The position numbers were made by a program, and so were the translations under genes. A stretch of DNA of 64,000 nucleotides from Holophagales bacterium UBA2201 (GTDB lineage: Bacteria > Acidobacteriota > Thermoanaerobaculia > UBA2201), in the NCBI GenBank assembly GCA_002327305.1, contig DCUZ01000073.1, forward strand, positions 2,623 to 66,622. The letters run 5' to 3'. Below, piece by piece: positions 39,921-59,867 of this stretch. Each line of letters begins with the position of its first letter. Position 1 is the stretch's first letter. The notes beneath the pieces were generated by a model. That model was not told the origin of the DNA. It saw only the letters and a list, made by a program, of their open reading frames with translations, and searched no databases.

Positions 39921-39926
39921 CGGGGT

Positions 39927-43103: not shown

Positions 43104-43125
43104 GCGCCGACTCTCCAGTCGGCGG
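43104..43125. repeat. dispersed copy of the 136-bp repeat hairpin core GCGCCGACTCTCCAGTCGGCGG followed by ATTTT
   Basis: Identical 22-mer, plus the shared upstream AATGT, as in each unit of the 14302..14840 array. Here it is positioned as a terminator after the small membrane protein gene. Confidence 0.6.
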
Positions 43126-43218
43126 ATTTTACAACGCATGAAGAACACTTTGGACAACGGACTGGTGACCATAGATCAGCGACCCCGACGAGGGACACCG
43201 GACCGATCCTTCCGCGTG

Positions 43219-43224
43219 TATAAT
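43219..43224 (+). promoter_or_regulatory. TATAAT -10 box 10 nt upstream of the second ATG (43235) of the hemolysin III gene
   Basis: Sequence gtgTATAATggatccatccATG. The first ATG (43223) overlaps the hexamer, so 43235 is the more likely leaderless start. Confidence 0.4.
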
Positions 43225-43882
43225 GGATCCATCCATGCAAGCCGAATACACGCAGCGCAAGCCCTACTCGACGGGCGAAGAGGTCGCTCACGCCGTCACC
43301 CACGGCGTCGGGGCGGCGCTGGCGGTGGCCGCCCTGGTCATCCTCGTCGTCCTCGCGGCGGGGCGGGCCGACGCCTGGCGCATCGTTGCCTTCAGCGTCT
43401 ACGGCGCCACCCTCATCCTCCTGTATCTGGCCTCCACCCTCTATCACGCCTTCCCGTGGCCCCGGGTGAAGCGGGTCTTCAAGGTCCTCGACCACTCCTC
43501 CATTTACCTGCTCATCGCCGGCACCTACACCCCCATCTGTCTGGTGGCGATGCGCGGCCCGTGGGGCTGGACCCTCTTCGGCCTCATCTGGGCCATGGCC
43601 GTCGGGGGGATCTGCTACAAGATCTTCCTGATCGGGCGGGCGAAGATATTATCGGTCGTCTTTTACATCGCCATGGGGTGGCTGGCGGTGATCGCCGTCA
43701 AGCCCATGTGGATCATGCTGCCGAAGAGCGCCATCGCGTGGATCTTCGCCGGCGGGCTCTTCTACACCCTGGGGGTCGTCTTCTACGCCATGAAGGGGGT
43801 GCGCTACCACCACGCCGTGTGGCACGGCTTCGTTCTGTGCGGTAGCGTCTGCCACTTCTTCGCGATGCTGGTCCTGGCGTAG
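43223..43882 (+). CDS. hemolysin III family (PAQR/YqfA-like) 7-TM protein
   Basis: KPYSTGEEVAHAVTHGVG, DHSSIYLLIAGTYTP and HAVWHGFVL. The true start is probably the ATG at 43235. Confidence 0.85.
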   Translation: MDPSMQAEYTQRKPYSTGEEVAHAVTHGVGAALAVAALVILVVLAAGRADAWRIVAFSVYGATLILLYLASTLYHAFPWPRVKRVFKVLDHSSIYLLIAGTYTPICLVAMRGPWGWTLFGLIWAMAVGGICYKIFLIGRAKILSVVFYIAMGWLAVIAVKPMWIMLPKSAIAWIFAGGLFYTLGVVFYAMKGVRYHHAVWHGFVLCGSVCHFFAMLVLA

Positions 43883-43886
43883 ATCC

Positions 43887-45986
43887 CTACGGGTTGAGCA
43901 GGGCCTGGGCCGCGGCGCGGAGATATTTGTTCTCCGACGCGGTCACCGTCCGCAAATCTTCGGGGACAAGGGGCTTGAGAATTTCCCCGCAGATCCCCAC
44001 GGTATCGATCGCGGCGTTGTTGTGCTTGATCCACGCTTCGTTGACGAGGGGGAGGCGGTCGTCGAACGCCTGCCCCTTGCCGGGCTTGTTCCCCCGGGAG
44101 AAGCGCTCCGCGAGGAGCCGGCCATCGCCAGCGAGGACTTGGACCGTCAACCGTTCCACGAGCACCCGGCCCCGCAGGGGCGGATAGCCCCCACCCTCCC
44201 GTTCGCGCACATAGCGCCGCTCCATCATTTCCCGGTCGACCCGGACCTCCAGGGGACCGAACCGCTGCATCATCACGGGTTGGGAGAGCGCGGCCTTCAG
44301 GCGGGCCACCCTGGGATCGGGAAGCGGGACCGCCTCCTGGTTGAACCGGCGGACGCGATCTCGCAAACCCTCGTCCTCGATGGCGTCCAGGCGGTCCATT
44401 TCGTACAGGCGGCGCCAGAGCGCCTCGCGCACATCCTCGTCCGGTTCCGTCGCCGCCCTGCGGGCCAGGACGACGGGATCGCGCACCATGGAGACGGCCT
44501 CGGTCCGCAGGCGCCAGTCGGGGCCGTTCTCAAGATAGGCGGCCAGCAGCGCCGGGTCGCTCAGGCGGCGAAGGGCGGTTTCGCGGACCCCGGTGCTGGG
44601 GTCGTCCCGAAGAATGCGATCGAGAAGGGGAGGGTCGAGCAGGCGGCTGACCGCATATTTTCGAACCAGCGCGGAGGGGTCCTCTTGGGCCGTCCGGGCG
44701 AAGATCGCCGGAGTCCCCGGGAGGGACCGGACCGCTTCGGCCCTCACCTCCCCGTCGGGATCCAGAAGGATCCAGTTCAGCGCGTTCGGGTCGGTCAGGC
44801 GCACCACCGCCTCCTTCCGCGCCTCGGGCGAGGGGTCGCGCCGCGCGATCTCCTCCAGCAGGACCTGATTCGACAGCCGGGAAGCCGCCCGGGCCCGGGT
44901 CCCTCCGTCCCCATCCTCGCGGGCCACGCGGGCCAGAAAGGCCTGGTCCTCCACGCGGGAAGTGGCGGCCCGCCGCACTTCGGGAGCGGGGTCCCCATCG
45001 GCCAGCCGGTAAAGGAGGTCCGGGTCCCGGACGGCCGCGACCGCGGCGCGGCGGACCTCGGCCGGTTGGCTGGGGTCATCCAGCAGCCGGAGCGCGTCCA
45101 CGCCGGAAAGCCGGGCCGCCGCGGCGGCGCGCACGGGGAGAGGCGCGGAGGGATCGAAAGCCGTCCGGCGGAGGACCTCCCCGTCCTCCGTCCGACCGAG
45201 GGCCAGAATGCGCGCGTCCGGCGCCGTTTCCAAAAGGGCCAGCCGGGCCAGGGTCCCGGGATCGCGGATCCCCATCACGGCCCTTTTCCGGACTGCCGGG
45301 TCTCTTGTCTCCCTGGCCAGCCGGGCCAGGCCCTCCGCGTCGTCCAGCGCCGTCGCGGCCGCCAGGCGGAGGTCGGGATCGGGATCGTCGAGGGCGATGG
45401 GGATCAGGGATTGCGGAAGGGTCAGACGGCGGACCGCGGTCTCGCGGACCTCGGGGTCCGGATCGGTTTGGATGATCTCGAGAAGAACGGTTTCGTTGGA
45501 AAGACGCCCCGCCGTTTCCTGACGGATGAAGGGCTCTTCGTCTGAGCGGGCCGTTTCCGCCAGAAGGAGGGGGTCCGTCACCCGGGCCAGGGCCTTCTGC
45601 CGGAGGAACCAGTCCCCCTTTCGCGCGAGACGGGCAAGGGCTTCCGGGTCGTCCAGATGGTCGATGGCCTCGACCCGGACATCCTTCCATCGCGACTCCC
45701 ACGCCACGCGCTCCAGGTCGGCCGGGTCCTTCAGCCGGTCCACGGCCGCCAGGGCCAGGTGGATGTCGGGTGCGGCGATGGCCAGCCGCAGGGCGCCGGG
45801 GTCCGGGGCGGTTTCCGTTTTGACGGGCAGAGGGGCGGTGGTGCAGGACAGGACCAGAGCCCATAGGATGACGGCGGCGGCCCTGCGCAGCCCCGCGGGA
45901 GGCGCGGCGGGACGGAGGGGATCGGGGGAGGCGGAACGGGAGGAAGAGGATCGCAAGAGGTCTCCTTTACGGGGCGCGTCCTTCAT
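43887..45986 (-). CDS. secreted HEAT / PBS-lyase-like repeat protein (paralog of 54993..57239)
   Basis: Many DPDPEVRETAVRRL-type repeats, a signal or lipoprotein-like sequence (AVILWALVLSC), and a conserved non-repeat C-terminal domain (ERRYVREREGGGYPPLRGR...). The start is uncertain; the ATG at 45984-45986 was chosen. Confidence 0.7.
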   Translation of the reverse strand: MKDAPRKGDLLRSSSSRSASPDPLRPAAPPAGLRRAAAVILWALVLSCTTAPLPVKTETAPDPGALRLAIAAPDIHLALAAVDRLKDPADLERVAWESRWKDVRVEAIDHLDDPEALARLARKGDWFLRQKALARVTDPLLLAETARSDEEPFIRQETAGRLSNETVLLEIIQTDPDPEVRETAVRRLTLPQSLIPIALDDPDPDLRLAAATALDDAEGLARLARETRDPAVRKRAVMGIRDPGTLARLALLETAPDARILALGRTEDGEVLRRTAFDPSAPLPVRAAAAARLSGVDALRLLDDPSQPAEVRRAAVAAVRDPDLLYRLADGDPAPEVRRAATSRVEDQAFLARVAREDGDGGTRARAASRLSNQVLLEEIARRDPSPEARKEAVVRLTDPNALNWILLDPDGEVRAEAVRSLPGTPAIFARTAQEDPSALVRKYAVSRLLDPPLLDRILRDDPSTGVRETALRRLSDPALLAAYLENGPDWRLRTEAVSMVRDPVVLARRAATEPDEDVREALWRRLYEMDRLDAIEDEGLRDRVRRFNQEAVPLPDPRVARLKAALSQPVMMQRFGPLEVRVDREMMERRYVREREGGGYPPLRGRVLVERLTVQVLAGDGRLLAERFSRGNKPGKGQAFDDRLPLVNEAWIKHNNAAIDTVGICGEILKPLVPEDLRTVTASENKYLRAAAQALLNP

Positions 45987-46075
45987 CGCCCTGTTCCGGA
46001 ACGGGAACGAAGGCGAGGGGACGCAAACGCCCCCGGCGGGTCGCCGGGGGCGGATGAACATGGCAAAACGGAGGG

Positions 46076-49000
46076 TCACCGGTTGCAGTAGCTGTCGGCC
46101 GTGCGCACCACCGGGCCCGTGGCGAAGCCCAGGGGCCCCTCGGCCGCAAAACCGTTGTCGCCGGTCACCAGGAAGAAGAGGGCGGGGGCTTCGCCCGTCA
46201 GTCCGGCATCCAGGTCCACGCCGGTCAGGGTGAGCATCCCTTCCGCGTCGGGGCCCGTCCATCCGGACAGCGAACACAACGCGTCCCCTTCGGCGGGATT
46301 GGTGACCAGGAACGGCGCCGTGGCGGCCGTCTTGGAGACATAGACCTGATAATGCGAGGCCCCCACTTCCTCGAACCGAAGGTCCACGAGGGCGGGGTCG
46401 GTGTTCTTGGCCGCCTTCAGCCGATGGTCCGGAATGCCGGAAACTTCCGGAGGGGCGGCCGCGGCGCAGGTGCCGGCCGCAACGTCGGAGCAGTCCCATC
46501 CGCCGCCGGGAGGCGTGTAATTGATGCGAAGGATGGGTTGGTAGGCCGGATTGGTCGTGTAGTCGTTGGAGGCGAACTGATAGGTCCGTTCACCTTGGTT
46601 GTTTTCGGTGTTGTCCTGGAGCATGAGTCCGTGGTTGGCGACTGCGCCGTCGTGCCAGTTTTGCACCAGCGTTGCGAGGCCGGTCCAGATCTTCCACCCG
46701 GTCGTGATCCCGGCTGCTATTGATGACTGGACCGTGGCGTTATAATTAGCGCTCATGTTCGTCCAGGTGGCGCCTGTCTCCGTCCAAGCGGTACTCAGAT
46801 AATGGACATTCAGCGTTCGGGTGTCCGAGGCCGCCGCCGTGCAGTACAGTTCCAGTTGGGCCGTGTTAATGGTGGATCCGGCCGGAATGGAGGAGAGGTC
46901 GAAATTAAGCAGCGCCCTCCGGTTCCTTTGCGTGCCCTGTTGGCGCAAACTCGTGACATACAGAGTGGAGGCTGTACCGTAGTTGGTGCTCGAGCTGTCC
47001 TGCTGGATATAGGTGTCGGCAATCGAGGGCTGGATGGCCAAATCAACGGGCGTTCCTCCCCCAAGGTTCTCTCCCACGGTGGCGCTGAACGCGTCGGATT
47101 CATTCGCCCCGGCCGGGGTCAGCTCGGTGCAGGTCTTGGTGACGATGTCGAAGCCGATGTCGGTTCCGCATCCAAAGGACGCCTCAAAGTCGTCGTCAAT
47201 GACGAATTCGAAGGTATAGACCGCGGTTCCGCCGACGGCCATGGCGCCGTAGAGGCCCGGATTGTTGCACACGGTGATCCCGTTGCCGGCCAGTTGCGCC
47301 GTGACGGCGGTGGCCCCGGCGTCGCCCGTGTTGCGCAGGGTCACCACGACGCTGTATTTCTCGCCCGGTTCGGCGTTCCCGTCGCCGTCGCCGGTGATCT
47401 GGGCCGGCACACCGTGCGAGAGATAGACGATGTTCGGAAGGCAGACGGTTGTGGTGGTGGAACAGGCCCCGTTGGCGCTGGTTCCGCAGGCGTTCTTGGC
47501 CTTGATATAGTAGCTGTATTGCGCATTCCCGGTCAGGCCGGTGTTGGTGTAGGTGGTGGCGCCGCCGGTGGTGGAGACGACCTGCGTCGCGCCGGTGCAG
47601 TTCGCGCCCGGGTTGCGCCACACCTCGTAGTCGGAAGCGCCGGAGACGGCGCTCCAGCTCAGGGCCACGCTGGTGCAGCCGGGGGTCAGCGCCGGGGCGC
47701 CGGGCGCGGCGGGAGTGGCGAGCGTGGTGGTGGTGGCGCAGGCCCCGTTGGCGCTGGTTCCGCAGGCGTTCTTGGCCTTGATGAAGTAACTGTATTGCGT
47801 GCCGGTGGTCAGGCCGGTGTTGGTGTAGGTGGTGGCGCCGCCGGTGGTGGAGACGACCTGCGTCGCACCGGTGCAGTTCGCGCCCGGGTTGCGCCACACC
47901 TCGTAGTCGGAGGCGCCGGAGACGGCGCTCCAGCTCAGGGCCACGCTGGTGCAGGAGGGGGTGAGGGCGGGGGCGGCGGGGGCCGTCGGAACGGCCAGGC
48001 GCACGCCGGCGTCGCAGGCGCTGGCGGGGCCGGCGCACGAACCGTTCAACGCCACGACCCAGTACTGGTAGGAGGTCCCGGCCACGGCGCTGGCGTCGGT
48101 ATACGGGCTGGTAACGCCGGTGAAGGTGTTCTGGGCCGTGCCGCAGACTGTGCCGCGCAGGACATTGTAACCGGTGGCGCCGGAGGCGGTGTTCCAAGTC
48201 ACCTGCACGTCGGTGCACCGGCTGTCGGTGGCCGCTACGCCCGTGGGGGCGGCGGGGGTGGCGAGGCGGGTGGCGGTGCGGCAATTGCTGTAGGCCGATT
48301 CGTTGACACCGCCGCCGTCGCAGGCGCCCTTGATGACATAGGCGTATTGGGTCCCGCCCACGGCGGAAGTATCGGCATACGTGGTGCCGGTGACGGGGCC
48401 GGCGATCTTGGCATAGGTCCCGCCGCAGGTTCCCTCCTTGCGGTAGACATTGTAGGAAAGGGTGGTGCCGGTTCCGGCGGACCAGGCCAGGTTCACGCCG
48501 CTGCAGTCCCCGGCGGCGGCGGTGAGGTTCGGGGCTCCCGGGGCGGTGCAGGTGCCGCACTGATCGAATTTGAAGGAGGCGATGTTTGTGGCGCTGTTGT
48601 TCGCCCCCTCTTCGTACATCCCGAAGAACCAGAAGGTGCAGTCGTCCGCCGGATCAACGCCCATGCCGGCATAGTCGCCCCAGCGGTCATAGGTGCTCTG
48701 GTAGCTGGTGCCGGCCTGGATGGTGTTGTCGACGGAGGAGAGGGTGCCGAGGGTGTCGGTGGAGAGGCGTCCGGCGTAGTAGGCCCCCGCGTAGGAGGAA
48801 CCGCTGGTGCGGGTATAGCCCAGGGCGATGTTGCCGCTTCCGTCCATCGCCACGCTGGTGACGCCCCGGTGGTAGGCGTCGTTGGCCAGGACCCCCTCCT
48901 GGTACTTGGTCCAGTTACCGCTTCCGGGAGGGGTGCGGCGCAGTTCGAACCAGTGGACGGCGGACTGGTTGGTGCCGTCCACGTCCTCCACGAATCCCCC

Positions 49001-50164
49001 CACGAGGGTCTCGTGCGTGGACCAGTTGCGGTATTGCAGGGGGAAATGGATGGGCTCGCGGATGGGGTCCAGCAGGCGCGTGGTCCCCGACTGAGGCATA
49101 CAGCCGAACTGGGTGGTGCCGCACACCGTCTGGTCCCAATCGGTCAACTGGGCGCTCGTCAGCTGGGTGAACGAGCCGGTGGGGGTGGAGCCCCAGGTGA
49201 CCTTGAACTCCCAGATCTCCATCAGGTCGCAGTTGGTGCAGGTGCCGCCGTGGATCTCGGTGTCCCGGGGGCGGAGGAAGAAGCCGCCGGAAGAGGAGGG
49301 CGGCAGGGTGGCGCCGGCGTGGTTGGCGGGCATCGTCAATTGGAAGCCCCAGCCCGAAAGACCGGTGACGGTGAATGAGAGGAGCCGGGCCGTCTGGCCG
49401 GCCAGCATCTTGTCGCGTTCGAGGGCGATGACATAGCCGCCGTTGTTGGCCCCCACGAAATAGGCGCTATTGTCGGCCGCGGGCCAGACGCCGTAGTGGG
49501 GGTAGTCCTGGTCGGTTCCTGGGGGGTTGAAAGGGTAATAGTAATAGGTGCCGGTAGGATCGGGCGAGGTGGAAACATAGACACAGAGGTTGTCGATGGA
49601 GGAGTCGAATTCGCTGATCAACCACCGGTCAGCGGCCCGGTCGTAGAGGATGATGGGGTCGCAGTAGCCGTTGGTGCAGGGGGAGGCGGTGGCCAGAGTT
49701 TCCATGGACTTGTTGGCCAGGAGGGTTGCGCCGGTCTTGTCGAGGACCCGGACCACCGACCCGCTGCTGCCGTTGACTCCCTGAACCACATGGTTGGGCC
49801 CCACATCCCCGGTGGGATCCGGGGGGGGGACGCCGTAGTCGAGCCCTTTGACGTTGACGATGGTGGTCCCAAAGGCCTTCTGGGTCCTGGAGTCGGCGGG
49901 TTGGGCCTCCGACTGCAGTTTGGCGAGAGGGTTGTCGTGAGGCGGGAAATCCAGTTCCGGGACGAAAATGCCGTGGGTGTCCCTCTGCTTCCCTTCGATG
50001 CTCATCAGGTTTTCCATGTCGGGAGTGTCGGGCAGATCCCGCAGGGCTGGGGTGATGGACGGCACCACGGGTTCGGAAACATAGACGGGCTCGTCGGCTG
50101 TTGCCGGGAACGCTCCCGTCATCAGGAAGAACACGGCGAGGATAATCGATGGACGAAACGGCAT
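46076..50164 (-). CDS. giant (~1360 aa) cysteine-rich secreted multidomain protein, paralog of 50711..54979
   Basis: Signal peptide MPFRPSIILAVFFLMTGAFPATA with an AAGGAG RBS. A conserved ~520-aa N-terminal domain (TGDVGPNH, GYCDPI, YPHYGVWP, RWGDYAGMGVDP, DDCTFWF) is followed by FN3-like repeats and a C-terminal domain ending in Cys. Confidence 0.75.
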   Translation of the reverse strand: MPFRPSIILAVFFLMTGAFPATADEPVYVSEPVVPSITPALRDLPDTPDMENLMSIEGKQRDTHGIFVPELDFPPHDNPLAKLQSEAQPADSRTQKAFGTTIVNVKGLDYGVPPPDPTGDVGPNHVVQGVNGSSGSVVRVLDKTGATLLANKSMETLATASPCTNGYCDPIILYDRAADRWLISEFDSSIDNLCVYVSTSPDPTGTYYYYPFNPPGTDQDYPHYGVWPAADNSAYFVGANNGGYVIALERDKMLAGQTARLLSFTVTGLSGWGFQLTMPANHAGATLPPSSSGGFFLRPRDTEIHGGTCTNCDLMEIWEFKVTWGSTPTGSFTQLTSAQLTDWDQTVCGTTQFGCMPQSGTTRLLDPIREPIHFPLQYRNWSTHETLVGGFVEDVDGTNQSAVHWFELRRTPPGSGNWTKYQEGVLANDAYHRGVTSVAMDGSGNIALGYTRTSGSSYAGAYYAGRLSTDTLGTLSSVDNTIQAGTSYQSTYDRWGDYAGMGVDPADDCTFWFFGMYEEGANNSATNIASFKFDQCGTCTAPGAPNLTAAAGDCSGVNLAWSAGTGTTLSYNVYRKEGTCGGTYAKIAGPVTGTTYADTSAVGGTQYAYVIKGACDGGGVNESAYSNCRTATRLATPAAPTGVAATDSRCTDVQVTWNTASGATGYNVLRGTVCGTAQNTFTGVTSPYTDASAVAGTSYQYWVVALNGSCAGPASACDAGVRLAVPTAPAAPALTPSCTSVALSWSAVSGASDYEVWRNPGANCTGATQVVSTTGGATTYTNTGLTTGTQYSYFIKAKNACGTSANGACATTTTLATPAAPGAPALTPGCTSVALSWSAVSGASDYEVWRNPGANCTGATQVVSTTGGATTYTNTGLTGNAQYSYYIKAKNACGTSANGACSTTTTVCLPNIVYLSHGVPAQITGDGDGNAEPGEKYSVVVTLRNTGDAGATAVTAQLAGNGITVCNNPGLYGAMAVGGTAVYTFEFVIDDDFEASFGCGTDIGFDIVTKTCTELTPAGANESDAFSATVGENLGGGTPVDLAIQPSIADTYIQQDSSSTNYGTASTLYVTSLRQQGTQRNRRALLNFDLSSIPAGSTINTAQLELYCTAAASDTRTLNVHYLSTAWTETGATWTNMSANYNATVQSSIAAGITTGWKIWTGLATLVQNWHDGAVANHGLMLQDNTENNQGERTYQFASNDYTTNPAYQPILRINYTPPGGGWDCSDVAAGTCAAAAPPEVSGIPDHRLKAAKNTDPALVDLRFEEVGASHYQVYVSKTAATAPFLVTNPAEGDALCSLSGWTGPDAEGMLTLTGVDLDAGLTGEAPALFFLVTGDNGFAAEGPLGFATGPVVRTADSYCNR

Positions 50165-50180
50165 TTTACACTCCTTAACA

Positions 50181-50201
50181 ATCAGGCGATATCTGCCTGA
50201 T
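50181..50201. promoter_or_regulatory. perfect inverted repeat ATCAGGC-GATATCT-GCCTGAT 17 nt upstream of the giant-protein start codon (candidate operator)
   Basis: 7-bp arms around a palindromic GATATC centre, inside an AT-rich 545-bp intergenic region. Confidence 0.35.
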
Positions 50202-50644
50202 TGCAAATGAACTTTGCGTAATCAATTGAAAGGGTAGCACTAAATGATATCTTATGTCAAGGATGTATTATGATTGTTGAAGGGTGTTTAGGAATTTCAT
50301 GGATTTGGAGGCGCCGGGGGCAAGCTTTGTGTGATCGTTCTCCGGGTGGAGCACTTTCGCGCTTATCGTTCGGCCAACGCCTTCAGGAACGATTCATTTT
50401 GATGGAGTCGCTGAGGGCTTCGTAATAGTACTCCGACTTGCAGGAGCGGCCGAACGCCTGGCTGTGTCGCTGGCGGTGCCGGACCGGAGCAGGTCACCGC
50501 CTTTGGACCTGGCTTTGATTTTCAGAGAAAGGTCGCCCTGACAGGAGGAGGTCTCCATGACGAACAACCCATTATTTTCCAGCAGTTTTTATGGAAGTAC
50601 CGGGTGGTTGGCCCTTGTCTCATTCGCCCGTTGAGACAAGCAAT

Positions 50645-50670
50645 TGCCCCCGCCGATGGTCCGGCGGGGG
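50645..50670 (-). terminator. GC-rich hairpin GCCCCCGCCG-ATGGTC-CGGCGGGGGC downstream of the 50711..54979 gene
   Basis: 10-bp perfect stem about 40 nt after the stop. Confidence 0.5.
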
Positions 50671-50710
50671 CAGGGGCGTTCGGGAGGAGCGGGGGGGGGC
50701 GCAGCGCCTG

Positions 50711-53700
50711 CTAACAGGGGCCTGAGGAGTTGAGGACGCGGGGGCCGGTGGAGGCGGCGCCGAAGGGGCCCGATCCGCCGGAGCCCTCGCCGCGGATGAG
50801 ATACCAGTAGAAGCCGCCGCTCACCCCTGAGGGATCGTCGGCGGAGAGGTCCACCGAGGTCTGGTCGGGAGCGGGGGTGGTGGCGCGGAGGCAGGCATCG
50901 GGGACGCCGTCCACCAGGAGGGATGGCAGGTCGGCCGGGACGCCGCGAAAGACGCTGTAGCCGTTGGTCGCCTTGGGGTCGGCCGCCCAGGCCAGCGCCC
51001 CGCCCGTCCAATGGGCGGTCTGCACCGCCGCCGGGTAGGGGGCGCCGGTGACGCAGGGGTTGTCCACGATGCCGGTGACCTTGACGTTGTCCAGTTCCCA
51101 GTACCAGTCGTCCTGCGCCACATAGCGGAAGCGCACCTTGCAGTTGGTCTGCCCGGCGTAGGGGAGCAGATTGAGGGTGCCGTGATTGTAAAGCGAGGTG
51201 GTGCCCGTGGTGGCCGTGTAGGTGATCAGGTTGGTCCAGGATGGCGTCTGGTCCGACATGAAGTCCACGTAGCCGTACTCGTCGGGGGTGCTATAGACGT
51301 AGAAATAATGGTCGTATTCCAGGTTGGCCGATGAGGCGCCGGCCGGGAGGTTGAAGGCCGGCGTGATCAACCACTCGTCCTGGTTTTCGACCGGGCTGTA
51401 GTTGACCCGGGCGATGTAACCGTAGGAACCGCCCTTGTTATAGCGGTACCAATCGTTGGTATTCCAGGTTCCCGGGATGCTTCCGTGGTCCTCGATCGTC
51501 CACCCGGCGGGCGGATTGTCGCCATAGGTGCCCCAGGCGCCCTCGAAGTTCTCCAGCGCCAGGGCGGTGAAGGGCCCCCCGCCGCTTCCCGTGGGGGCGC
51601 CGGAGCGCTCCACGGTGTTGGTCTCCTCAATTCCGTTCTGGACGGTGACGGCGCGGGTCTTGTAGTAGTAGGGGGTCCCGCTTTCGAGAGAGTCGGTGTC
51701 CTGGTAGGTGGTGCCGGTGACCCCGGCGGCGATGCGGTTGCCGATGGCCGGCGTAAAGCCGGGCGAGGTGTCGCGGTAGACATTGTAGGTGACGCCCCCC
51801 GGGCAGGGGGTCGTGCCGGCGTCCCAGTCCAGGTCGAGGGTGCAGGTGGCCTCGCCGGGGTTGGTGACGGAGCCCAGTCCGACGAAGGTGGGCTCGGCCT
51901 GCCAGGTGATCTGCGTGGGGAGGGCGTCCGACATGGCGGAGGAACAGCCCGACCCCTTGATATGGCAGTTGTAGAGGTGCGTCCCGGTGTCGTTGGCGCT
52001 GTAGGTGGAGGCCGTGGCTCCGCCGATGGGGTTGAGGCCGTCGTACCACTGATAGGTCATTCCCACGCCGCCGGTGGGGCTGGCACTCAGGAGTTGGGCC
52101 GTCCCCGCGCACAGCGTCAGCGGCCCGTCCGGGATGACGCTCACAAGAGAGGGGTTGTTGGCACAGGATGAGCCGGTGGAGCAGGGCACGGGAACGAACC
52201 CAGTGACGAGCACGTTGTCCACCATCCAGTACCAGCCATAGGTCCCCGTGTATCGGAACCGGACCTTGACCTGGGCGGCCGTGCCCGCCAGGGCTGTGAT
52301 GTCCAGCGTCCTGTGGCTGGCCGTCGAGGAGGTTCCTACGGTCGTTGTCCAAGAGGTATGGGTCGTCCAGGTGCTCCCGTTGTTGTTGGACACATCGATG
52401 TAGGCCACGCTGCCGCTGTAGTGATAGTAGTAGGTGTCGAACTCCAGCGTCACCGTGGACGCTCCCGTGCAGTCAAAGGCCGGCGTGATCAGGCTATCAT
52501 CCTGCGAGACCCCGCTTCCATCCCTGTCGCTGTCGATGATCTCGATGGGGGCGGTCATCCCGGCGGGGATGGTCCTCCCGCCAGGATTGAGCGTCGTCCA
52601 CCGTTGCGTGCCGGTGCCGCCGTTCGCGATCGTCCAGCCCGCGGGAGGGTCGCCGGTCCCAAAGGCCTCGTCGATGTAGGTCTGGGGCCCCCCGCCGGGC
52701 CCGAAGGGGGCACCACTCTCCTCATGAGTGTTGGCCTCCTCGAAGCCGTTGACGCTGTCCACCGAGCGGACCACGTAGTAATAGGTGGTGCCGCTCGCGA
52801 GATTGTCCAGGTCCTGGTAGGTGGTTCCGGTGACGCCCGCGGCGATGCGGTTGCCCTCCCCGGGGGTGAAGCCGGAGGTAGTGGAGCGGTAGATGTTGTA
52901 GGTGACCGAACCGGAGCAGTTGGAGGTGCCTGAGCTCCAGGAGAGGTTGAGGATGCAGGTGGCGGAAGCCGGGTTGATTACGCTCGCAATGCCGGCGAAA
53001 GTCGGGGACAGGGTGCACGCGCCTGTGGCGAGGGCGTTGACCTCGCTGGAGGTGGGGGAGGTGCAGGCCGCGCCGTCGTTGGACTTGACGACATAGTAAT
53101 AGCGGGTCCCGCCGGAGACGGTGCCGTCCGTGTAGATGTAGGTGGGGCTGTTGTCGTCCGCAACCTCGGCGATCTGCTCGTAGGGGCCGCCCGCTGTGGT
53201 GGAACGGTACACCCAATACCGTGTGATGGTGGAGGTGGCGGAGTCGTTCCACGAAATGTTGATCTCGTTGTCGCCGGGGACCCAGGCCGATGCCGTCGGG
53301 GCCGGCGGGACGGCGAGACAGCCGCAGGCGTCGAACTTGAAGGCGGCGATCTTGGTCTGGCCGCTTCCGCCGTATTCGGTGACGAACCAGAAGGTGCAGC
53401 CGTCGGAGGGATCCACACCGATGCCGGCGTAGTCGCCCCACCGCTCGTTGTTGGTCTTGGAGGTGGAGGCGTCCTGGATCACATACTCGTAGTAGGGCAT
53501 GGTCCCCAGGGGGTCGGTGGCGAGGCGTCCGGCGTAGTAGATGGAAGGGTAGTAGGGGGCGAGCGAACCCGTGCGGGTATATCCGACGGCGATGTTGCCG
53601 GAGGAGTCCATGGCGGCCGAGCACACGGAGCGGTTGATGGTGTTGGACCCGGAGGTGGTGGCCAGGACCCCCTCCTGGTGGGAGACCCAGGCGCCGCTTC

Positions 53701-54979
53701 CGGTCTTGCGCATTTCAAACCAGTGGACCCCGGCTCGGTCACTGCCGACGTCCTCGGCGAAGCACCCGACGAGGGTCTGATAGTCTCCCCAGTTGCGGTA
53801 TTGGAGGGGGAAGTGGAGGGGCTCGCGGATGGGGTCAATCTTCTGGCTTGTCCCGGGTTGGGGCATACAGTTCCAATTGCCGGAACTTCCGCAGAGGGTG
53901 TGGTCGTACTCGGCGATCTTGATGTCCGGCAGCTTGGTCATGACGGAGTTGCCCGGCGTGGCCCAGTCCACCAGGACGGAATAGATCTCCATGATGTCGC
54001 ACGGTTCCGGGGAACACGATTTGCCGGTATGGATCTCGGTGTCCACGGGGCGGAGGAAGTAGCCCGGCTGGTTGCCGGCGGGAGGAAGCCCGTCCCCCTC
54101 GTGTCCGCCCGGAAGGAAGAGCTGAAAGCCGAAGGCCGACAGGGAGGGGGGGGTGAACTTCATGAAGGTGGCGGGAAGGCCCTGGAGCATCTTGGCCCGG
54201 TCCAGGGCCACCAGGTCCCTTCCGCCGCTTCCCGCGTTGAGGCCGATGAGGTAGGAGCCCTCCAGGTACTGGCCGTCGCCGTTGGTGTCAAGGGGCCAGA
54301 CGCCGTATTTGGGATAATCGGGAGTACCGGTCTCCACGTTCAGGAACTGGTAGGCGTACCAGGTTCCCGTGGGATCGGGTGTGGTGGAGACATAGACGCA
54401 CAGATGGCCGCCACTGGAGGGGAACTCGCTCAAGATCCACCGGTCGGCGGCCTCGTCGTAGTTGACGATGGGGTCGCAGTAACCGGTGTTGCAAGGCGAG
54501 CCGCTTGCGAGGGAGTCGAGCTCGAAGTGGGCCTGCTGGGTCCCGCTTTTGTTGAAGATGCGGGCGATGGAGGTGCCGCCGCTGTTGGATCCCTGAACGA
54601 AGTGGTTCGGGCCCACGTCGCCGGTGGTGTCGGGGGGGGAGGAGGAGGACTGGTACCCCGCGAAGTTGAGGATGGGGGTGCCGAAGGCCAGCGCCTGGGG
54701 CGGGTCGGGGGCGGGGGCGCGGTCCTGCAGGTCGATGAGGGGATTGTAAAAGGGCTTGCCGTCCTGGCTGGGGCCGGAAAAACCGTAGTCCTGCCGCCTC
54801 GCCGCCTCAGGGCCGTAAGGGGTCCACGATTCGTCTATCGGGGGGAGGTCGCGGACGGCGGTGCTGATGGTCGGGGCGAACGGTTCGCTCACATAGGTGG
54901 GGCCGCTGTCGGCGCCGAGCCACGCGGCGCACGCCAAGGCGAGGCAGATCACAAATGTGCGGAATACCGGATGGTTCAT
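50711..54979 (-). CDS. giant (~1420 aa) cysteine-rich secreted multidomain protein with two MAM-like / jelly-roll domains, paralog of 46076..50164
   Basis: Signal peptide MNHPVFRTFVICLALACAAWLGA with a GGAGG RBS. The N-terminal ~520 aa are homologous to the Big1 N-terminal domain. It also has FN3-like repeats and two domains with WTTL...RFRY...WYW(M/E)(V/L)DNV motifs. The last residue is Cys. Confidence 0.75.
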   Translation of the reverse strand: MNHPVFRTFVICLALACAAWLGADSGPTYVSEPFAPTISTAVRDLPPIDESWTPYGPEAARRQDYGFSGPSQDGKPFYNPLIDLQDRAPAPDPPQALAFGTPILNFAGYQSSSSPPDTTGDVGPNHFVQGSNSGGTSIARIFNKSGTQQAHFELDSLASGSPCNTGYCDPIVNYDEAADRWILSEFPSSGGHLCVYVSTTPDPTGTWYAYQFLNVETGTPDYPKYGVWPLDTNGDGQYLEGSYLIGLNAGSGGRDLVALDRAKMLQGLPATFMKFTPPSLSAFGFQLFLPGGHEGDGLPPAGNQPGYFLRPVDTEIHTGKSCSPEPCDIMEIYSVLVDWATPGNSVMTKLPDIKIAEYDHTLCGSSGNWNCMPQPGTSQKIDPIREPLHFPLQYRNWGDYQTLVGCFAEDVGSDRAGVHWFEMRKTGSGAWVSHQEGVLATTSGSNTINRSVCSAAMDSSGNIAVGYTRTGSLAPYYPSIYYAGRLATDPLGTMPYYEYVIQDASTSKTNNERWGDYAGIGVDPSDGCTFWFVTEYGGSGQTKIAAFKFDACGCLAVPPAPTASAWVPGDNEINISWNDSATSTITRYWVYRSTTAGGPYEQIAEVADDNSPTYIYTDGTVSGGTRYYYVVKSNDGAACTSPTSSEVNALATGACTLSPTFAGIASVINPASATCILNLSWSSGTSNCSGSVTYNIYRSTTSGFTPGEGNRIAAGVTGTTYQDLDNLASGTTYYYVVRSVDSVNGFEEANTHEESGAPFGPGGGPQTYIDEAFGTGDPPAGWTIANGGTGTQRWTTLNPGGRTIPAGMTAPIEIIDSDRDGSGVSQDDSLITPAFDCTGASTVTLEFDTYYYHYSGSVAYIDVSNNNGSTWTTHTSWTTTVGTSSTASHRTLDITALAGTAAQVKVRFRYTGTYGWYWMVDNVLVTGFVPVPCSTGSSCANNPSLVSVIPDGPLTLCAGTAQLLSASPTGGVGMTYQWYDGLNPIGGATASTYSANDTGTHLYNCHIKGSGCSSAMSDALPTQITWQAEPTFVGLGSVTNPGEATCTLDLDWDAGTTPCPGGVTYNVYRDTSPGFTPAIGNRIAAGVTGTTYQDTDSLESGTPYYYKTRAVTVQNGIEETNTVERSGAPTGSGGGPFTALALENFEGAWGTYGDNPPAGWTIEDHGSIPGTWNTNDWYRYNKGGSYGYIARVNYSPVENQDEWLITPAFNLPAGASSANLEYDHYFYVYSTPDEYGYVDFMSDQTPSWTNLITYTATTGTTSLYNHGTLNLLPYAGQTNCKVRFRYVAQDDWYWELDNVKVTGIVDNPCVTGAPYPAAVQTAHWTGGALAWAADPKATNGYSVFRGVPADLPSLLVDGVPDACLRATTPAPDQTSVDLSADDPSGVSGGFYWYLIRGEGSGGSGPFGAASTGPRVLNSSGPC

Positions 54980-54992
54980 GATCCCTCCTGTG

Positions 54993-57239
54993 TTAGGGCT
55001 GGAGCAGGGCGTCGGCGGCGGAGCGGAGATACTTGTCCCTCCCTCCCGCGAACGCCTTCCAGAGTTCCGGGCCCCCGGGCTCGATGAGCGCGGCGGCGAT
55101 GGCCTCGAAATCGAAATCAGCGGCATTATACCTTAGATAATAGTCATCAAGCCGGGGGTAATGCTCGTCGAAGACCTGGACTTTGCCGGCCTTTGCGCCG
55201 CGGAATTCCCGATCGAGGACCGGCTTCCCGTCCGAACCGACAACCCGGACCACCCACTGTTCCACGCGGGTCCGGCCCCGCAGGGGCGGGTAGCCGCCCT
55301 CCGGCCGCTCCTGGGAATAGCGGCGCTCGTCGAAGCGCAGGGTTGCGTCCACGGAGAGCGGTCCGAGGCGTTCCTGAACGGCCGGATCGAGGAGGGCCTC
55401 CATCAGGCGGACGAGGCGGGGGTCCGTGACCTGGCCGTCGAGCTCCAGCATGCGGAACGCTACGGCCCGGCGGATTGGAGCCGGGCCCTCGGCGAAGGCC
55501 TTTTGGAGGGCGGTGTGGTCCTGGAACTCCAGCACCTCAGCGACCCTCCCTCCCAGGGGCCCATCCGGGGGATGGAGATCCGCCCGGACGAGGGGACGGA
55601 CCGGGTGGACCAGGTCGCGCCATATCCGCTCCCGCAGGCCGGGGTCGGCCACATGGCCGACCACCCGCATTTCATACAGCCGCTTGCACGCGGCACGCCG
55701 TACATCCTCATCGGCGTCTGTCAGCGCCACCCGCTCCAGCACGGCGGGGTCGCTCATCTGCAGGGCCGCCTGTTTTCTCAGCTTCCAGTCCGATCCGTCG
55801 GACAGGTAGGCCTCCAGGGTCTCGGGGTCGGTCAGCCGCCCCATGGCCGCGGAGCGGACGGAGGCGCTCGCGTCGGTCCGGATGACCCGGCTCAGGATGG
55901 CCGGGTCCAGCAGGCGGACGCAGGCGTTTTTGCGGACCAGCGGCGAGGGGTCCTTCAGCGCCAGGTCCTGGAACAGCGCCGGTTCGTCCGGCAGTTCCAG
56001 GACGGCCCTGGCCCGGACGGCACCGTCGGGGTCCTCCAGGGCCGACCTCAGCGCGGCGGGGTCGCCCACCCGGGCGACGGCCTCCCGTCTCACCAGGGGC
56101 GAAGGGTCCTCCCGGAGGATCCGGGCCAACAGAGCGCGATCGTTCAGCCGCCCCGCGGCGCGGGCGCGGACGGCCTCGCTCCCGTCCTCCCGAGCGAGGC
56201 GGCCCAGGGTCCTGGGGTCTTCCAGCCGTCCCACCGCCGCGAGCCGGATCCCGGGGTCGTCCGTTCCTTCAGCGAGTTTGGCCAAAAGCGCCGGGTCCTT
56301 AACCTGTCCGATGGCCGCCAGGCGGACCGGTAGGGGCTGGTCGGGCCGGGTCAGTTGGGTCAGGAGGGCGGCATCGTCCAGGCGCGCGGCAGTCGCGGCG
56401 CGCACGGCCGGATCCTCGTCGCCCTTCCGGGCGATGGCGCGAAAGAGTTCGGGATCGTCCATCATCCGGATCGCCAGGACCCTCAGGGCGGGGGCGTCCT
56501 TCCCCATGGCCACCGCTCCGTAGAGCGCCGGGTCGCCGATCTTTGCCATGGCCTGTTCGCGGAATTCGGCGTCGCTCGTCTCCCCGGCGATGGCCAGGAG
56601 GAGGTACTTGTCGGTCAGGGCGCCCAGGGCGGCCTTCCGGACGCCGCGGTCATCGGAGGCGCGGACGATGGAGGCCAGCACCTCAGGGTCGCGGATGCTC
56701 CAGGCCGCCGCCTCGCGCACGCGGGGCTCGGGGTCGCGCGCGACGATGTCCCGCAGGACGGCCGGGTCCTTCAACAATTTCGCCGCGTTCTCACGCACCA
56801 GCGCGTCGGGGTCGGTCCGGGCCGCCTCCGCCAGAAGATCCTGGTTCCGCACCCGTCCGAGGGCCAGGTCGCGCAGGTACCAGTCGCCCTCGCGGAGTAC
56901 CTTTTCAACGAGGGCGGCGTCCGTGAGGCGTCGGATGGCGTCGGCCCGCACCGCCTTGCGCGGCGCCTCCAGCGCCAGCCGGCCCAGAAGGCCCTGGTCC
57001 TCCAGGCGAAGGACGGCTTCGAGGGCCACCTGCAGGGCGGGGTCGTTCATGGCCAGGTCGAACAGCTTCTCCGGGTCGTTTAGCCCGCGCACCTCCTCCA
57101 GCCGGTCCAGGACGGCATAGGTGGCCAGCGGCGCGGAGGGATGCCCCTCCTCGGGTTCCATCTCCTGGGCGGTCAGAGGCGCGGCGCCGGCCAGGAGCAG
57201 GCCCAGGACGGAAGAGAGGAAGACGGTGAGCAATCGCAT
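54993..57239 (-). CDS. secreted HEAT / PBS-lyase-like repeat protein (paralog of 43887..45986)
   Basis: Signal peptide MRLLTVFLSSVLGLLLAGAAPLTAQE. HEAT-like repeats. The C-terminal domain is conserved with the paralog (ERRYSQERPEGGYPPLRGR...). It ends 13 nt before the Big2 start. Confidence 0.75.
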   Translation of the reverse strand: MRLLTVFLSSVLGLLLAGAAPLTAQEMEPEEGHPSAPLATYAVLDRLEEVRGLNDPEKLFDLAMNDPALQVALEAVLRLEDQGLLGRLALEAPRKAVRADAIRRLTDAALVEKVLREGDWYLRDLALGRVRNQDLLAEAARTDPDALVRENAAKLLKDPAVLRDIVARDPEPRVREAAAWSIRDPEVLASIVRASDDRGVRKAALGALTDKYLLLAIAGETSDAEFREQAMAKIGDPALYGAVAMGKDAPALRVLAIRMMDDPELFRAIARKGDEDPAVRAATAARLDDAALLTQLTRPDQPLPVRLAAIGQVKDPALLAKLAEGTDDPGIRLAAVGRLEDPRTLGRLAREDGSEAVRARAAGRLNDRALLARILREDPSPLVRREAVARVGDPAALRSALEDPDGAVRARAVLELPDEPALFQDLALKDPSPLVRKNACVRLLDPAILSRVIRTDASASVRSAAMGRLTDPETLEAYLSDGSDWKLRKQAALQMSDPAVLERVALTDADEDVRRAACKRLYEMRVVGHVADPGLRERIWRDLVHPVRPLVRADLHPPDGPLGGRVAEVLEFQDHTALQKAFAEGPAPIRRAVAFRMLELDGQVTDPRLVRLMEALLDPAVQERLGPLSVDATLRFDERRYSQERPEGGYPPLRGRTRVEQWVVRVVGSDGKPVLDREFRGAKAGKVQVFDEHYPRLDDYYLRYNAADFDFEAIAAALIEPGGPELWKAFAGGRDKYLRSAADALLQP

Positions 57240-57344
57240 CGAAGCACCTCCGTTGGCGGGGATCGGACCGGCGGGGGGGCCGGGGAGCCCTTAGATTACC
57301 ATGTCCGGTGCCGGCCGTGCGACGGCGCGGGGCGTCCGCCCGGC

Positions 57345-59867
57345 CTATTCTCTCGGGTCCTCGAAGAACGCCCTGATCCGCATGCGCCCGGCCTCGTTTT
57401 TCCAAGTCTCGTGGAAGAGGCGGATCTCGGCGTCGTCCCAATTCGTCCGCCGCGCCTCCCCCGCCAGGGAGGCCGCCATTTCCAGCTCCCCCCGGCCCTT
57501 CAGGATGGAAGCGCGCATGAACAGCGTCCGGGCCTCGAAGAACCGGTCCAGCAGGGTCACGAACTCCGGGTCGGCGCCGGCGGGGAAAGCGAGGAGCCGG
57601 TCCAGGGCCTTCCGGTTGCGCCCGGCCAGGAGCTCCTCCATGTTGGCGGACCATGTGAAGGGGTGGAGGGAGGCGCCGGCCGGGTATTCGAGGACCGGCC
57701 GATCGTCGGTGACGGGGGGGACATCGGCCGTCCAGGCCTCCAGGTCCCGCGCCTCCATCAGCAAAAGCGCCAGCCAGTCCGCGCTCCGGGCCAGCCCTGA
57801 CCGGAGCAGGTCCTGCCGCACGGGGAGCCGTTCCAGGTTCCGGTCCCAATCGCCGGGATCGACGCGCAGGGGTTCGGTCCCCCCCAGGAGGATGGCGTGG
57901 GCGTGGCCCAGCCAGAGGGAGGATTCGGGGAAGACGCGGCGGAAGGTGGCCGCGGCCCTTTGCAGGTCCTCCGCCGTGATCCACCGAAGAGGCAGGTACT
58001 GCGCAACCCTACCCCCGGGTTTCAAGCGGCGCCGGACGAGTTCGAAATACTCCCGCGTGTAGAGGTTGCCCGACCCCAGGGCCGGGTGGGTGGGGTCGCA
58101 GGTGATGACATCGTAGGACCGGTCGTTCCGCAGGAGCCACTGCCGCCCGTCCCCCGGGATGAGGCGCACGCGCGGGTCCTCCAGCACCCCGCGGTTGTAG
58201 GCCTCGTAAAGAGGGGCCGCCCCGGCGATCTCCGGGCACAGTTCCACGCAGTCCACCCGCTCCACGGGCCAGGCCAGGACATGACGGGCCGTCACCCCCA
58301 GGCCGAACCCGACGACCAGGACCTCCCCGGCGTCGGGTGAGGCCAGGAGGGGGAGGTGGGCCAGCATCCGGACCACCTTCAGGGCGTCGTAGGTGGTGCC
58401 GCACACCGCGCTGTTGTTGATGTAACTCCACCGGACGCCCGTCCGGGCGTCCTCCACGACGGCGATGGTCCCCTCCACGGCGTCCCGGTGGAAAAGGAGC
58501 CGGTCGCTCCGATGGGCGTCGCGGAACACGGAGATGGGGAGGGGTTTGGGGAGATGGTCGTGGAGAAACAATGCCCCCGCCGTCAGGGCCACGGCGGCGG
58601 TGACCCAGAGGCCCGCCCGCGTGCGTTCCGCATCGCCGGCCGCACGGCGCGTCGCCAGGGCCAGGACGCCGTAGGCGATGCCGATGAGGAGGATGGAGCG
58701 CAGGGGGCCCGCCGCCGGCATCAGGAGGAACGCCGCCGCGGGGGCGCCGAGGACGGCGCCAAGGGTGTTGAGGCCGTAGAGCGTCCCCATCTCCCCGCCG
58801 GGCGGTTCCTTTCTGCCGGGGTGGAGGGCCACCAGGAGGGGGAGGAGGGTCCCCATGAGAAAGGCGGAAGGGAGAACGAGAAGGCCGGAGAGCATCAGGG
58901 GCGGGATCCAAATCTGCCGCCAGGGCGCCAGCAGAAGGGAGCGGAACCGGAAGAGGAGATCGGGACCCCAGACTGAGAGGGGGATGGTGGCCAGGGCCAA
59001 AACGGCAAGCCCCCCCAGAACCGCGGTCAGCCGGGCCGCCGCCCGTCCTTCGCGCCTGGAGAGGCGGCCGCCCCAGAGGCATCCCAGGCCGTATCCGGCC
59101 AGATAGGCGGCTAGGGTGAGGCCGAATGCCGTGTGGCGGTTGGGCAGGTAAACGGCCAGCAGACGCATCCAGTTCGTCTCCAGGGCCATGCCCAGAAACC
59201 CCAGGAGGGCCGCGGCGGCCGGGAGGAGGAAGGGGGAGGGGGCGTCGGGCCGGTCAAGGCGCGCCGGTTCCCGAAGTGGAGGGCCGGCGGCGATGGGGAT
59301 GGCGGAGAGGAACAGGACGGCGCCGGTGAAGAACGACGCGGTGATCCCCAGCCGGGGGATCAGGAGGAAGGTGGCGGTGAGGACCCCGGCGACCCCCCCC
59401 AGGGTGTTCCAGCCCAGGATGCGCCCCGTGCGGGTGCCGCGGTCCCCCTCTGCAGCGGTGGAGCGGTAGAGGAGGGGGAGGATGGCGCCCAGGAACAGGC
59501 CGGCGCCCGAAAGCAGAAGCCAGGCGATGGCGGCCTCCGCCGCCCAGGGCAGACGCCCGGTCACGAGAAGGGGGAGGAGGAAGGGGAGCATGGCCATCCA
59601 TGCGGCCCCGGCCGACTGGTTCCACGAAATGGCGGATCGGCCGAGGCGCCCCGCCAACGGGAGGCGTCCGGCTGCCCACGCCCCGAGCCCCATTCCGCCG
59701 AGGATGCCGGAAAGGACCACGGCCCAGGCCCCGGCGGTGGTCCCCAGCAGGACGGCCAGGCGGCGGGCCGCCGCCGGTTCAAGGCAGAACAGGGCGAAGC
59801 CGCACAAAAACGCGGCCGTCGCCATGCGCCGCGGATGCATGATCTTCATGGGTTGAAAGTGTACCAC
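57345..59867 (-). CDS. fused polytopic membrane domain (MFS-like) / spermidine-synthase-like aminopropyltransferase
   Basis: About 12 TM helices at the N-terminus. The C-terminal PABS-like fold motifs are VLVVGFGLGVTARH and ITCDPTHP. The exact start among the N-terminal Mets is uncertain. Confidence 0.8.
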   Translation of the reverse strand: MVHFQPMKIMHPRRMATAAFLCGFALFCLEPAAARRLAVLLGTTAGAWAVVLSGILGGMGLGAWAAGRLPLAGRLGRSAISWNQSAGAAWMAMLPFLLPLLVTGRLPWAAEAAIAWLLLSGAGLFLGAILPLLYRSTAAEGDRGTRTGRILGWNTLGGVAGVLTATFLLIPRLGITASFFTGAVLFLSAIPIAAGPPLREPARLDRPDAPSPFLLPAAAALLGFLGMALETNWMRLLAVYLPNRHTAFGLTLAAYLAGYGLGCLWGGRLSRREGRAAARLTAVLGGLAVLALATIPLSVWGPDLLFRFRSLLLAPWRQIWIPPLMLSGLLVLPSAFLMGTLLPLLVALHPGRKEPPGGEMGTLYGLNTLGAVLGAPAAAFLLMPAAGPLRSILLIGIAYGVLALATRRAAGDAERTRAGLWVTAAVALTAGALFLHDHLPKPLPISVFRDAHRSDRLLFHRDAVEGTIAVVEDARTGVRWSYINNSAVCGTTYDALKVVRMLAHLPLLASPDAGEVLVVGFGLGVTARHVLAWPVERVDCVELCPEIAGAAPLYEAYNRGVLEDPRVRLIPGDGRQWLLRNDRSYDVITCDPTHPALGSGNLYTREYFELVRRRLKPGGRVAQYLPLRWITAEDLQRAAATFRRVFPESSLWLGHAHAILLGGTEPLRVDPGDWDRNLERLPVRQDLLRSGLARSADWLALLLMEARDLEAWTADVPPVTDDRPVLEYPAGASLHPFTWSANMEELLAGRNRKALDRLLAFPAGADPEFVTLLDRFFEARTLFMRASILKGRGELEMAASLAGEARRTNWDDAEIRLFHETWKNEAGRMRIRAFFEDPRE

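Follow-up and report, generated by a model that had tools for sequence, protein, structure and literature searches.

Among the nearest functional analogues of the genes reported here is the pair of a lipase and its lipase-specific foldase (LipA-Lif), a system restricted to two-membrane (diderm) bacteria and encoded in two-gene operons of Pseudomonas and Burkholderia. Lif is a dedicated, non-catalytic, all-alpha-helical periplasmic partner, either membrane-tethered or soluble, which embraces the lipase before its outer-membrane export. HEAT repeats are also known from immunity proteins, the Imm-HEAT proteins of polymorphic toxin systems (PMC3482391). The Toastrack domain has been proposed as a protein-docking platform, with published contexts in intracellular Psp/Lia stress systems (PMC11237479). 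Here we describe a module of two genes, one for an exported HEAT-repeat protein (HEAT) and one for a large, cysteine-rich secreted protein (Big). It occurs twice in a 64,000-nt stretch of contig DCUZ01000073.1 from Holophagales bacterium UBA2201, an acidobacterium. We call this whole stretch the window and give positions in its numbering unless a locus is named.

HEAT-Big is a real, vertically conserved two-gene module. Its two copies lie on the minus strand and read, in the direction of transcription, HEAT1 (54993-57239, 748 aa), Big1 (50711-54979, 1,422 aa), a terminator-like hairpin (50645-50672, 12-bp stem with 10 GC pairs), Big2 (46076-50164, 1,362 aa) and HEAT2 (43887-45986, 699 aa). An earlier note, made from the sequence alone, had listed four minus-strand open reading frames (ORFs) in mirror order, repeats and a C-terminal RY..ER..GGYPPLRGR...ALL.P domain common to the HEAT proteins, and an N-terminal domain with invariant cysteine motifs common to the two giants. 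All of these are present. HEAT1 and HEAT2 are 41% identical over 687 aa, essentially their full length and including the C-terminal domain (E 1e-133). Big1 and Big2 are 43% identical over 747 aa (E 4e-163), and about 48% identical over their N-terminal ~545 aa.

Gene starts were refined using ribosome-binding sites (RBS) and signal peptides. The HEAT1 ATG has GGAGG 7 nt ahead of it. The Big1 frame is open from 55126; the ATG chosen at 54979 is preceded by AGGAGG and lies 13 nt from the TAA of HEAT1. The Big2 start is preceded by AAGGAG. An 870-aa version of HEAT2, starting at 46499 and overlapping the end of Big2, is probably too long. Two transcription units, HEAT1-Big1 and Big2-HEAT2, are predicted because of the hairpin after Big1 and the AT-rich region and good RBS upstream of Big2. 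Judging by this layout, HEAT and Big are probably co-transcribed and translationally coupled. An Rfam scan of 43000-58000 gave zero matches, and a repeat search of the region found no inverted repeats.

The pairing is conserved well beyond this genome. With the window included, we count 13 HEAT-Big pairs. They lie on 12 distinct contigs, which represent Holophagales, Thermoanaerobaculia and other Acidobacteriota and range in GC content from 36% to 67%. HEAT usually comes directly before Big on the same strand, with a gap of 13-90 nt or an overlap of 4-20 nt; stop and start codons overlap by 4-13 nt in L086, L087, L090 and L092. This order is seen in three ENA metagenome contigs (L001, where the HEAT gene is frameshifted; L003; and L085, whose Big is 62% identical over its full length and is the Big1 orthologue) and in metagenome-assembled genomes (MAGs) from Holophagales (L004; Big 77% identical to the window and HEAT, a HEAT1 orthologue, 59%), Acidobacteriota (L005 and L007) and Thermoanaerobaculia (L086; GC 39%). 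It is also seen in the Logan contigs L087 (GC 36%) and L090/L091 (GC 63%) and in an NCBI MAG (L092; GC 45%). A further contig, L089, matches the window's second unit exactly, with a Big1 fragment, Big2, HEAT2 and a convergent HlyIII gene; its Big2 orthologue is 68% identical and its HEAT2 orthologue, P0122, 63% identical. In the most distant pairs the identity of the HEAT C-terminal domain falls to about 21-25%, with Big still at 50-59%. Searching from the HEAT side, a gene of the HEAT C-domain family has a Big-clade neighbour in 11 of the 12 loci with a readable flank. Apart from HlyIII in L089, no flanking gene is conserved across loci: the spermidine-synthase-like gene, C25 peptidase, histidine kinase and HExxH proteins of the window are not found conserved beside the pair elsewhere.

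Two features of individual contigs are noted separately. L005 opens with the 3' end of a second Big-type gene (positions 1-135), and HEAT and Big come next (629-6630), so tandem Big-HEAT-Big arrays occur in other genomes too. In L001, L002 and L013 the Big genes (and in L001 also HEAT) are split into several ORFs, which look like frameshift errors of long-read MAG assemblies rather than genuine pseudogenes.

Each Big protein begins with a signal peptide followed by the shared N-terminal domain (Big1 53335-54979; Big2 48530-50164, 48% identical to the Big1 domain). In the predicted structure this domain is a seven-bladed beta-propeller, with four-stranded blades that superpose on known propellers, and a fold search returned only generic seven-bladed propellers. 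Big1 has 30 cysteines and Big2 35. Five of them (C163, C194, C363, C371 and C528) are near-invariant across the whole N-domain family, and an alignment of 54 diverse members has 32 invariant columns, many of them Asp or Arg; D117, D169, D175, R180, D221, D313, D328, D382, E422, R450 and R485 are among these invariant residues. The domain (residues ~25-545) had zero matches in Pfam-A, NCBIfam and PADLOC; a Pfam scan of the 54 members at E up to 1 placed nothing on it; and searches of PDB sequences with single sequences and with a profile found no relative. The earlier note had been unable to assign either this domain or the HEAT C-terminal domain to a characterised family, and the database searches agree, adding only the generic propeller fold.

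Known propeller families were compared directly. Against WD40 scaffolds, integrin alpha, Sema, PL42 and PL24-25 lyases, virginiamycin B lyase and YncE, the Big N-domain shows 5-12% identity and Foldseek TM-scores of 0.2-0.43, with no family-level match. Unlike these propellers, it has ~170 extra residues in insertions, conserved disulfides and a conserved N-terminal segment that packs on the propeller in the model. The WD40 repeat family was rejected, as no WD40 repeats are detected by profile. A sialidase (GH33) or other propeller glycosidase was also rejected: neither the Big proteins nor the 54 members match a BNR or GH profile, and when Foldseek matches the model to NanH and further sialidases, TM-scores are only 0.24-0.35.

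The propeller family is large: its homologues fall into more than 1,500 protein clusters, and tblastn confirmed at least 583 matches among the GTDB species-representative genomes. Among the matches listed are Acidobacteriota, Chloroflexota, Gammaproteobacteria, Actinomycetota, Myxococcota and others. Behind the propeller, members carry PKD, PPC, P-domain, CarboxypepD_reg, cadherin-like, fibronectin type III (fn3), MAM-like, dockerin, RTX and similar modules. No catalytic domain other than the propeller is fused in the members examined. With only non-catalytic modules behind it, the propeller would be the functional head. Most probably it either acts as a secreted enzyme or binds an extracellular polymer tightly; the invariant acidic and basic residues, the disulfides and the carbohydrate-binding-type accessory modules make a polymer-active enzyme the likeliest class.

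We placed 87 propeller domains in a neighbour-joining tree. The HEAT-linked propellers form a single clade, with Big2 as its deepest branch. Inside it only L002 and L006 (Anaerolineae) have no HEAT gene; L013 (Chloroflexia), which is partial and too fragmented for the tree, has none either. L006 and L013, the closest taxonomically assigned HEAT-less loci to the HEAT clade, are both Chloroflexota. The tree of HEAT broadly agrees with that of Big, but with a higher rate of change in HEAT (mean distance 0.75 vs 0.45).

In sister clades the place of HEAT is taken by another protein. Unsupervised clustering of neighbouring ORFs identified an exported Toastrack/DUF4097 protein of ~290 aa, encoded immediately upstream of the propeller gene on the same strand, with a gap of 8-340 nt, in 26-30 loci (L012, L016-L020, L022, L025-L027, L029, L031-L034, L037, L038, L042, L050, L059, L060, L066, L069-L071, L073 and L078 among them). 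The taxa represented include Lysobacterales, Dokdonella, Aliikangiella, Alteromonadaceae, Halomonas, Thermoanaerobaculia and Holophagae. All partners of both types have export signals, some of the signal peptidase I (SPI) type and some with a lipobox, the latter in about 6 of 13 HEAT proteins and about 11 of 30 Toastrack proteins. As Toastrack is treated as an intracellular domain in the published account, an exported Toastrack upstream of a propeller is a context new to it (PMC11237479). We found neither the HEAT-Big pair nor a Toastrack-propeller link described in the literature, and no publication on the propeller domain or on the HEAT C-terminal domain. The HEAT C-terminal domain was considered as a remote Toastrack relative and rejected (hhalign probability 0.1%; its model is not a beta-helix).

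The occupancy of this position differs between phyla. Where 1 kb or more of sequence was available upstream, a partner was found at 0 of 20 loci from Chloroflexota and Actinomycetota, compared with 29 of 47 in the remaining phyla. In the tree, Chloroflexota sequences that lack a partner fall at least three times within groups of diderm lineages that have one. The partner position is thus filled by two unrelated non-catalytic scaffolds and is empty in single-membrane (monoderm) phyla. This qualifies the functional coupling proposed in the earlier note from the retained pairing. Its survey of adjacent genes, once carried out, found the pair on 11 further contigs from very divergent genomes, with one exception (L084), which supports a coupling within the HEAT clade. 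Most members of the propeller family have a Toastrack partner or none, so the conserved entity is the upstream exported-partner position and HEAT is one clade-specific occupant of it.

HEAT1 has an SPI-type signal peptide and HEAT2 a lipobox (LVLSC). Both score above the Pfam gathering cut-offs of 23.5 bits for HEAT (PF02985) and 27.7 bits for HEAT_2 (PF13646), with 46.5 and 44.9 bits for HEAT1 and 32.7 and 31.2 bits for HEAT2. The repeat region of HEAT1 (55650-57107) holds ~19 repeats of 26 aa, with the pattern DPxxLxxIAxxDxDxxVRxxAxxRLx and autocorrelation peaks at lags of 26, 52 and 78 residues. Canonical two-helix HEAT repeats have a period of 37-47 aa, and HEAT1 falls outside that definition. 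We take its 26-residue period to be closer to PBS-lyase-like or LRV-like short repeats. HEAT1 and HEAT2 share with the HEAT/PBS-lyase HEAT-like/LRV short solenoids the D-P..L..IA..D.D..VR..A signature and the short period; unlike known short alpha-solenoid repeats, they are exported and have a unique C-terminal domain. Searches of PDB sequences with the whole of HEAT1 and with its repeat region found no relative. HEAT is taken to be a non-catalytic exported protein.

The HEAT C-terminal domain is a non-repeat alpha/beta domain of 164 aa in HEAT1 (54996-55487), with the pattern ERRY...GGYPPLRGR...KYLRxAAxALLxP. Its counterpart in HEAT2 (43890-44339) is 42% identical, with 63 invariant columns. 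The domain has no match in Pfam, NCBIfam, PADLOC or PDB sequences. Its predicted model, a four-strand meander with helices, had no neighbour in a fold search. A word-indexed protein search found nothing with a single sequence and only two fragments with a profile; the family was recovered by exhaustive search of representative sequences, and a metagenome scan with a six-sequence alignment gave two loci. One protein, P0121, is a 346-aa fragment that differs from HEAT2 by one residue, so a near-identical genome has already been sampled.

The two Big proteins differ in the modules behind the propeller. Big1 has fn3-like domains and two choice-of-anchor J (MAM-like) domains, the first at about 52196-52678 and the second at 51077-51553 (NCBIfam NF038128, E 2.2e-22, in two stretches), followed by a clade-specific C-terminal domain of ~110 aa ending in Cys (50714-51052), which is 60% identical in L085. 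Big2 has an fn3 array (47435-48517; Pfam fn3, E 9.9e-21), a DNRLRE/CBM96-like domain (46523-47020; NCBIfam NF033679, E 4e-30; Pfam CBM96, E 1.7e-20) and a C-terminal domain equivalent to that of Big1, which matches L086 and L087. All of the modules named in databases score above curated cut-offs (fn3 74 bits, CBM96 74, DNRLRE 105, choice_anch_J 80); such accessory domains and the HEAT repeats were all that Pfam, NCBIfam and PADLOC recognised in the four proteins. The founding member of CBM96 binds alginate (PMC9971899). Within the fn3 array, a 276-nt (92-aa) unit has been duplicated in tandem very recently (47448-47998); the duplication is seen as the direct repeats D1 and D7 with 92% nucleotide identity. 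The idea that the C-terminal domain is a general sorting tag was dropped, since it is absent from the other proteins of the window.

Module resemblance extends to a neighbouring gene. A large, secreted, gingipain-family cysteine peptidase is encoded on the plus strand from 60014 to 64000, running past the end of the window, with Pfam matches to Peptidase_C25 (E 7e-52), its propeptide, Ig-like, fn3 and InhA-like MAM domains. In its MAM-like region it is similar to modules in the C-terminal parts of Big homologues (38% identity to L005).

How might the two proteins work together? Our leading reading, a tentative one, is that Big has HEAT as a dedicated escort, a steric chaperone or an inhibitor, which would bind it in the periplasm or envelope until its export. 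Big is a Sec-exported, disulfide-rich extracellular protein, with the propeller as its working head and fn3 spacers and carbohydrate-binding-type modules behind it. HEAT would be made from the same mRNA, usually just ahead of Big, and would meet it in the periplasm or at the envelope of the two-membrane host. There it would keep Big folded, inactive or export-competent until it leaves the cell, in a manner comparable to lipase-foldase or periplasmic-inhibitor pairs. We favour this because of the export signals, the co-inheritance and a partner position that is held by two unrelated scaffolds and vacant in single-membrane phyla. The earlier note had itself inferred that HEAT might serve as a chaperone, anchor or regulator.

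Several observations weigh against an escort. The 1.7-kb contig L084 carries a 72%-identical HEAT1 orthologue, but the gene after it encodes a small lipoprotein and no Big lies beside it. L002, inside the HEAT-linked clade, is without HEAT. The order is Big2 then HEAT2 in the window's second pair and in L089, so HEAT being made first is not essential. A solenoid of 700 aa is large for a simple inhibitor. Finally, the large partner-less half of the tree also contains diderms (Vicinamibacterales, Nitrospirae, Methylomirabilota and Geobacteraceae), and the contrast between single- and double-membrane phyla is therefore partly confounded by phylogeny.

The window keeps a trace of the L084 arrangement. 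Between Big1 and Big2, 50404-50569 on the minus strand is a 3' remnant of a small lipoprotein-like gene, 74% identical in nucleotides to L084 1043-1209. Together, the two point to insertion or deletion of Big1 between close relatives.

A more far-reaching reading seems unlikely to us: the propeller would be the catalytic head of a new, widespread family of secreted enzymes, and HEAT and the exported Toastrack would belong to a new class of periplasmic guardians, for immunity or steric chaperoning, and would have been recruited independently. If so, the propeller enzyme would be dangerous to a two-membrane envelope or unable to fold unaided in it.

Equally unlikely is a surface tether, in which HEAT, as a lipoprotein or outer-membrane-associated solenoid, would hold Big at the cell surface. 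About half of the HEAT partners and a third of the Toastrack partners do have a lipobox. Neither Big1 nor Big2 has a membrane or sorting motif at its C-terminus; both end instead in the clade-specific domain with its terminal Cys, and choice-of-anchor J normally occurs in proteins with C-terminal anchors, according to the NCBIfam NF038128 description. The lack of partners in monoderm phyla would also fit a function tied to the outer membrane. However, the remaining half, to which HEAT1 belongs, have an ordinary cleavable signal peptide and no lipid anchor, and the Toastrack-linked homologues are often short (550-950 aa) and carry no choice-of-anchor modules. A tether also presupposes that acidobacterial lipoproteins reach the cell surface.

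Distinctly unlikely is that the propeller is an antibacterial effector that attacks a component of the diderm envelope, with HEAT or Toastrack as the periplasmic immunity protein of the producer. The partner evolves faster than the propeller protein and is lacking in monoderm phyla, as would be expected. The mix of soluble and lipoprotein partners recalls PliC/MliC lysozyme inhibitors and the immunity proteins of the type VI secretion system (T6SS). Among the matches listed, the family is common in lytic or predatory genera (Lysobacter, Dokdonella, Myxococcales, Streptomyces, Aliikangiella), and HEAT repeats have precedent as immunity proteins (PMC3482391). On the other hand, we saw no toxin domain, polymorphic C-terminus, RHS, T6SS or contact-dependent inhibition (CDI) context or orphan immunity arrays. 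The immunity gene would lie upstream, while in known systems it is usually downstream, and many diderm homologues have no partner. As a class, polymorphic toxin/immunity systems were rejected: the conserved part of Big is N-terminal, the C-termini are binding-type modules and the partner is usually upstream.

We consider it quite improbable that the two proteins form an obligate extracellular hetero-complex. In such a polymer-degrading machine, co-secreted HEAT would be the subunit that binds the substrate or provides a scaffold, much as SusD-like binders or scaffoldins do. Extended polymers can be bound by long solenoids, and both the tight operon coupling with co-inheritance and the carbohydrate-binding-type modules of Big would suit such a machine. 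Yet many lineages of the propeller family do without a partner and others have one of unrelated structure, so the partner is not part of a conserved catalytic or binding site. Nor is a TonB-dependent receptor or transporter conserved nearby; one was seen, in L092 only.

Least probable is that the genes have no functional link and are two lineage-specific secreted proteins adjacent through shared inheritance. Since the module occurs in a single phylum-level lineage, common descent by itself accounts for some of the synteny, but the adjacency outlasts changing flanks, the full range of GC content and the decay of the HEAT C-domain to ~21-25% identity, with stop and start codons overlapping or 13 nt apart, Big-clade neighbours in all but one readable HEAT-C-domain locus and an independent partner family at the same position in sister clades.

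Other genes surround the module. A spermidine-synthase-like domain (Pfam Spermine_synth, E 4e-19) is fused to a polytopic membrane protein at 57345-59867 (minus strand), 105 nt upstream of HEAT1; its place beside the pair is not conserved elsewhere. On the plus strand, 39846-42677 encodes a secreted protein of ~940 aa that has no Pfam match and whose N- and C-terminal parts are alike. Weak relatives (24-34% identity) occur at L085 10798-11613, just downstream of Big, and at L072 14969-16552, near a Big homologue. A signalling cluster on the minus strand (35456-39993), assigned from translations only, comprises a PAS histidine kinase (37903-39993), a single-domain response regulator (37478-37921) and a REC-GGDEF-EAL protein (35456-37477). 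Two large secreted proteins on the same strand, of ~1,390 aa (28294-32469) and 952 aa (32432-35290), contain HExxH motifs (HEMGHF and HELFHH) and have no Pfam match; they may be novel metallopeptidases.

The partner-position pattern offers a testable hypothesis on how poorly studied diderm phyla handle large secreted proteins in the periplasm, and both the propeller and its partners are targets for structure determination and activity screening. Should the guardian reading be true, it would give a first assigned role to an exported Toastrack protein and to a new alpha/beta fold. Should the propeller turn out to act as an enzyme on an environmental polymer or a cell-envelope component, it would found a new CAZy- or MEROPS-type family.

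Among known systems, HEAT-Big resembles LipA-Lif: both are two-gene operons that join a secreted protein to a dedicated non-catalytic helical partner, and both are confined to diderm bacteria. HEAT is unrelated to Lif in sequence and differs from it in being twice as large, in its 26-aa repeats and extra alpha/beta domain, and in that the partner gene usually comes first. Its client is a multidomain protein with a beta-propeller, while that of Lif is an alpha/beta-hydrolase. HEAT is not itself a Lif, as HEAT1 and HEAT2 have no Pfam Lipase_chap match and the neighbouring gene is not a lipase; the likeness is a functional analogy only. Periplasmic inhibitor and immunity proteins (AprI/Inh for serralysins, PliC/MliC for lysozymes, T6SS Tsi and Imm-HEAT) are similarly encoded beside a secreted enzyme and are also faster evolving. 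Unlike HEAT, known inhibitors are small (100-200 aa), and Imm-HEAT is cytoplasmic and encoded after toxin genes; the propeller, unlike the clients of these inhibitors, has no known toxin or hydrolase activity. Toastrack-propeller pairs have the same client family, the same upstream, same-strand position and the same use of a signal peptide or lipobox, and they too are absent from monoderm phyla. Their partner is a ~290-aa beta-helix without similarity to the HEAT C-domain. HEAT-Big is not categorically new, because its folds (a solenoid and a propeller) are common and its logic is like that of known operons of a secreted protein plus an accessory. What is new is the widespread, unannotated propeller family, the rare C-terminal domain without a fold neighbour, and a partner position in which Toastrack is displaced by HEAT and which monoderm phyla leave empty.

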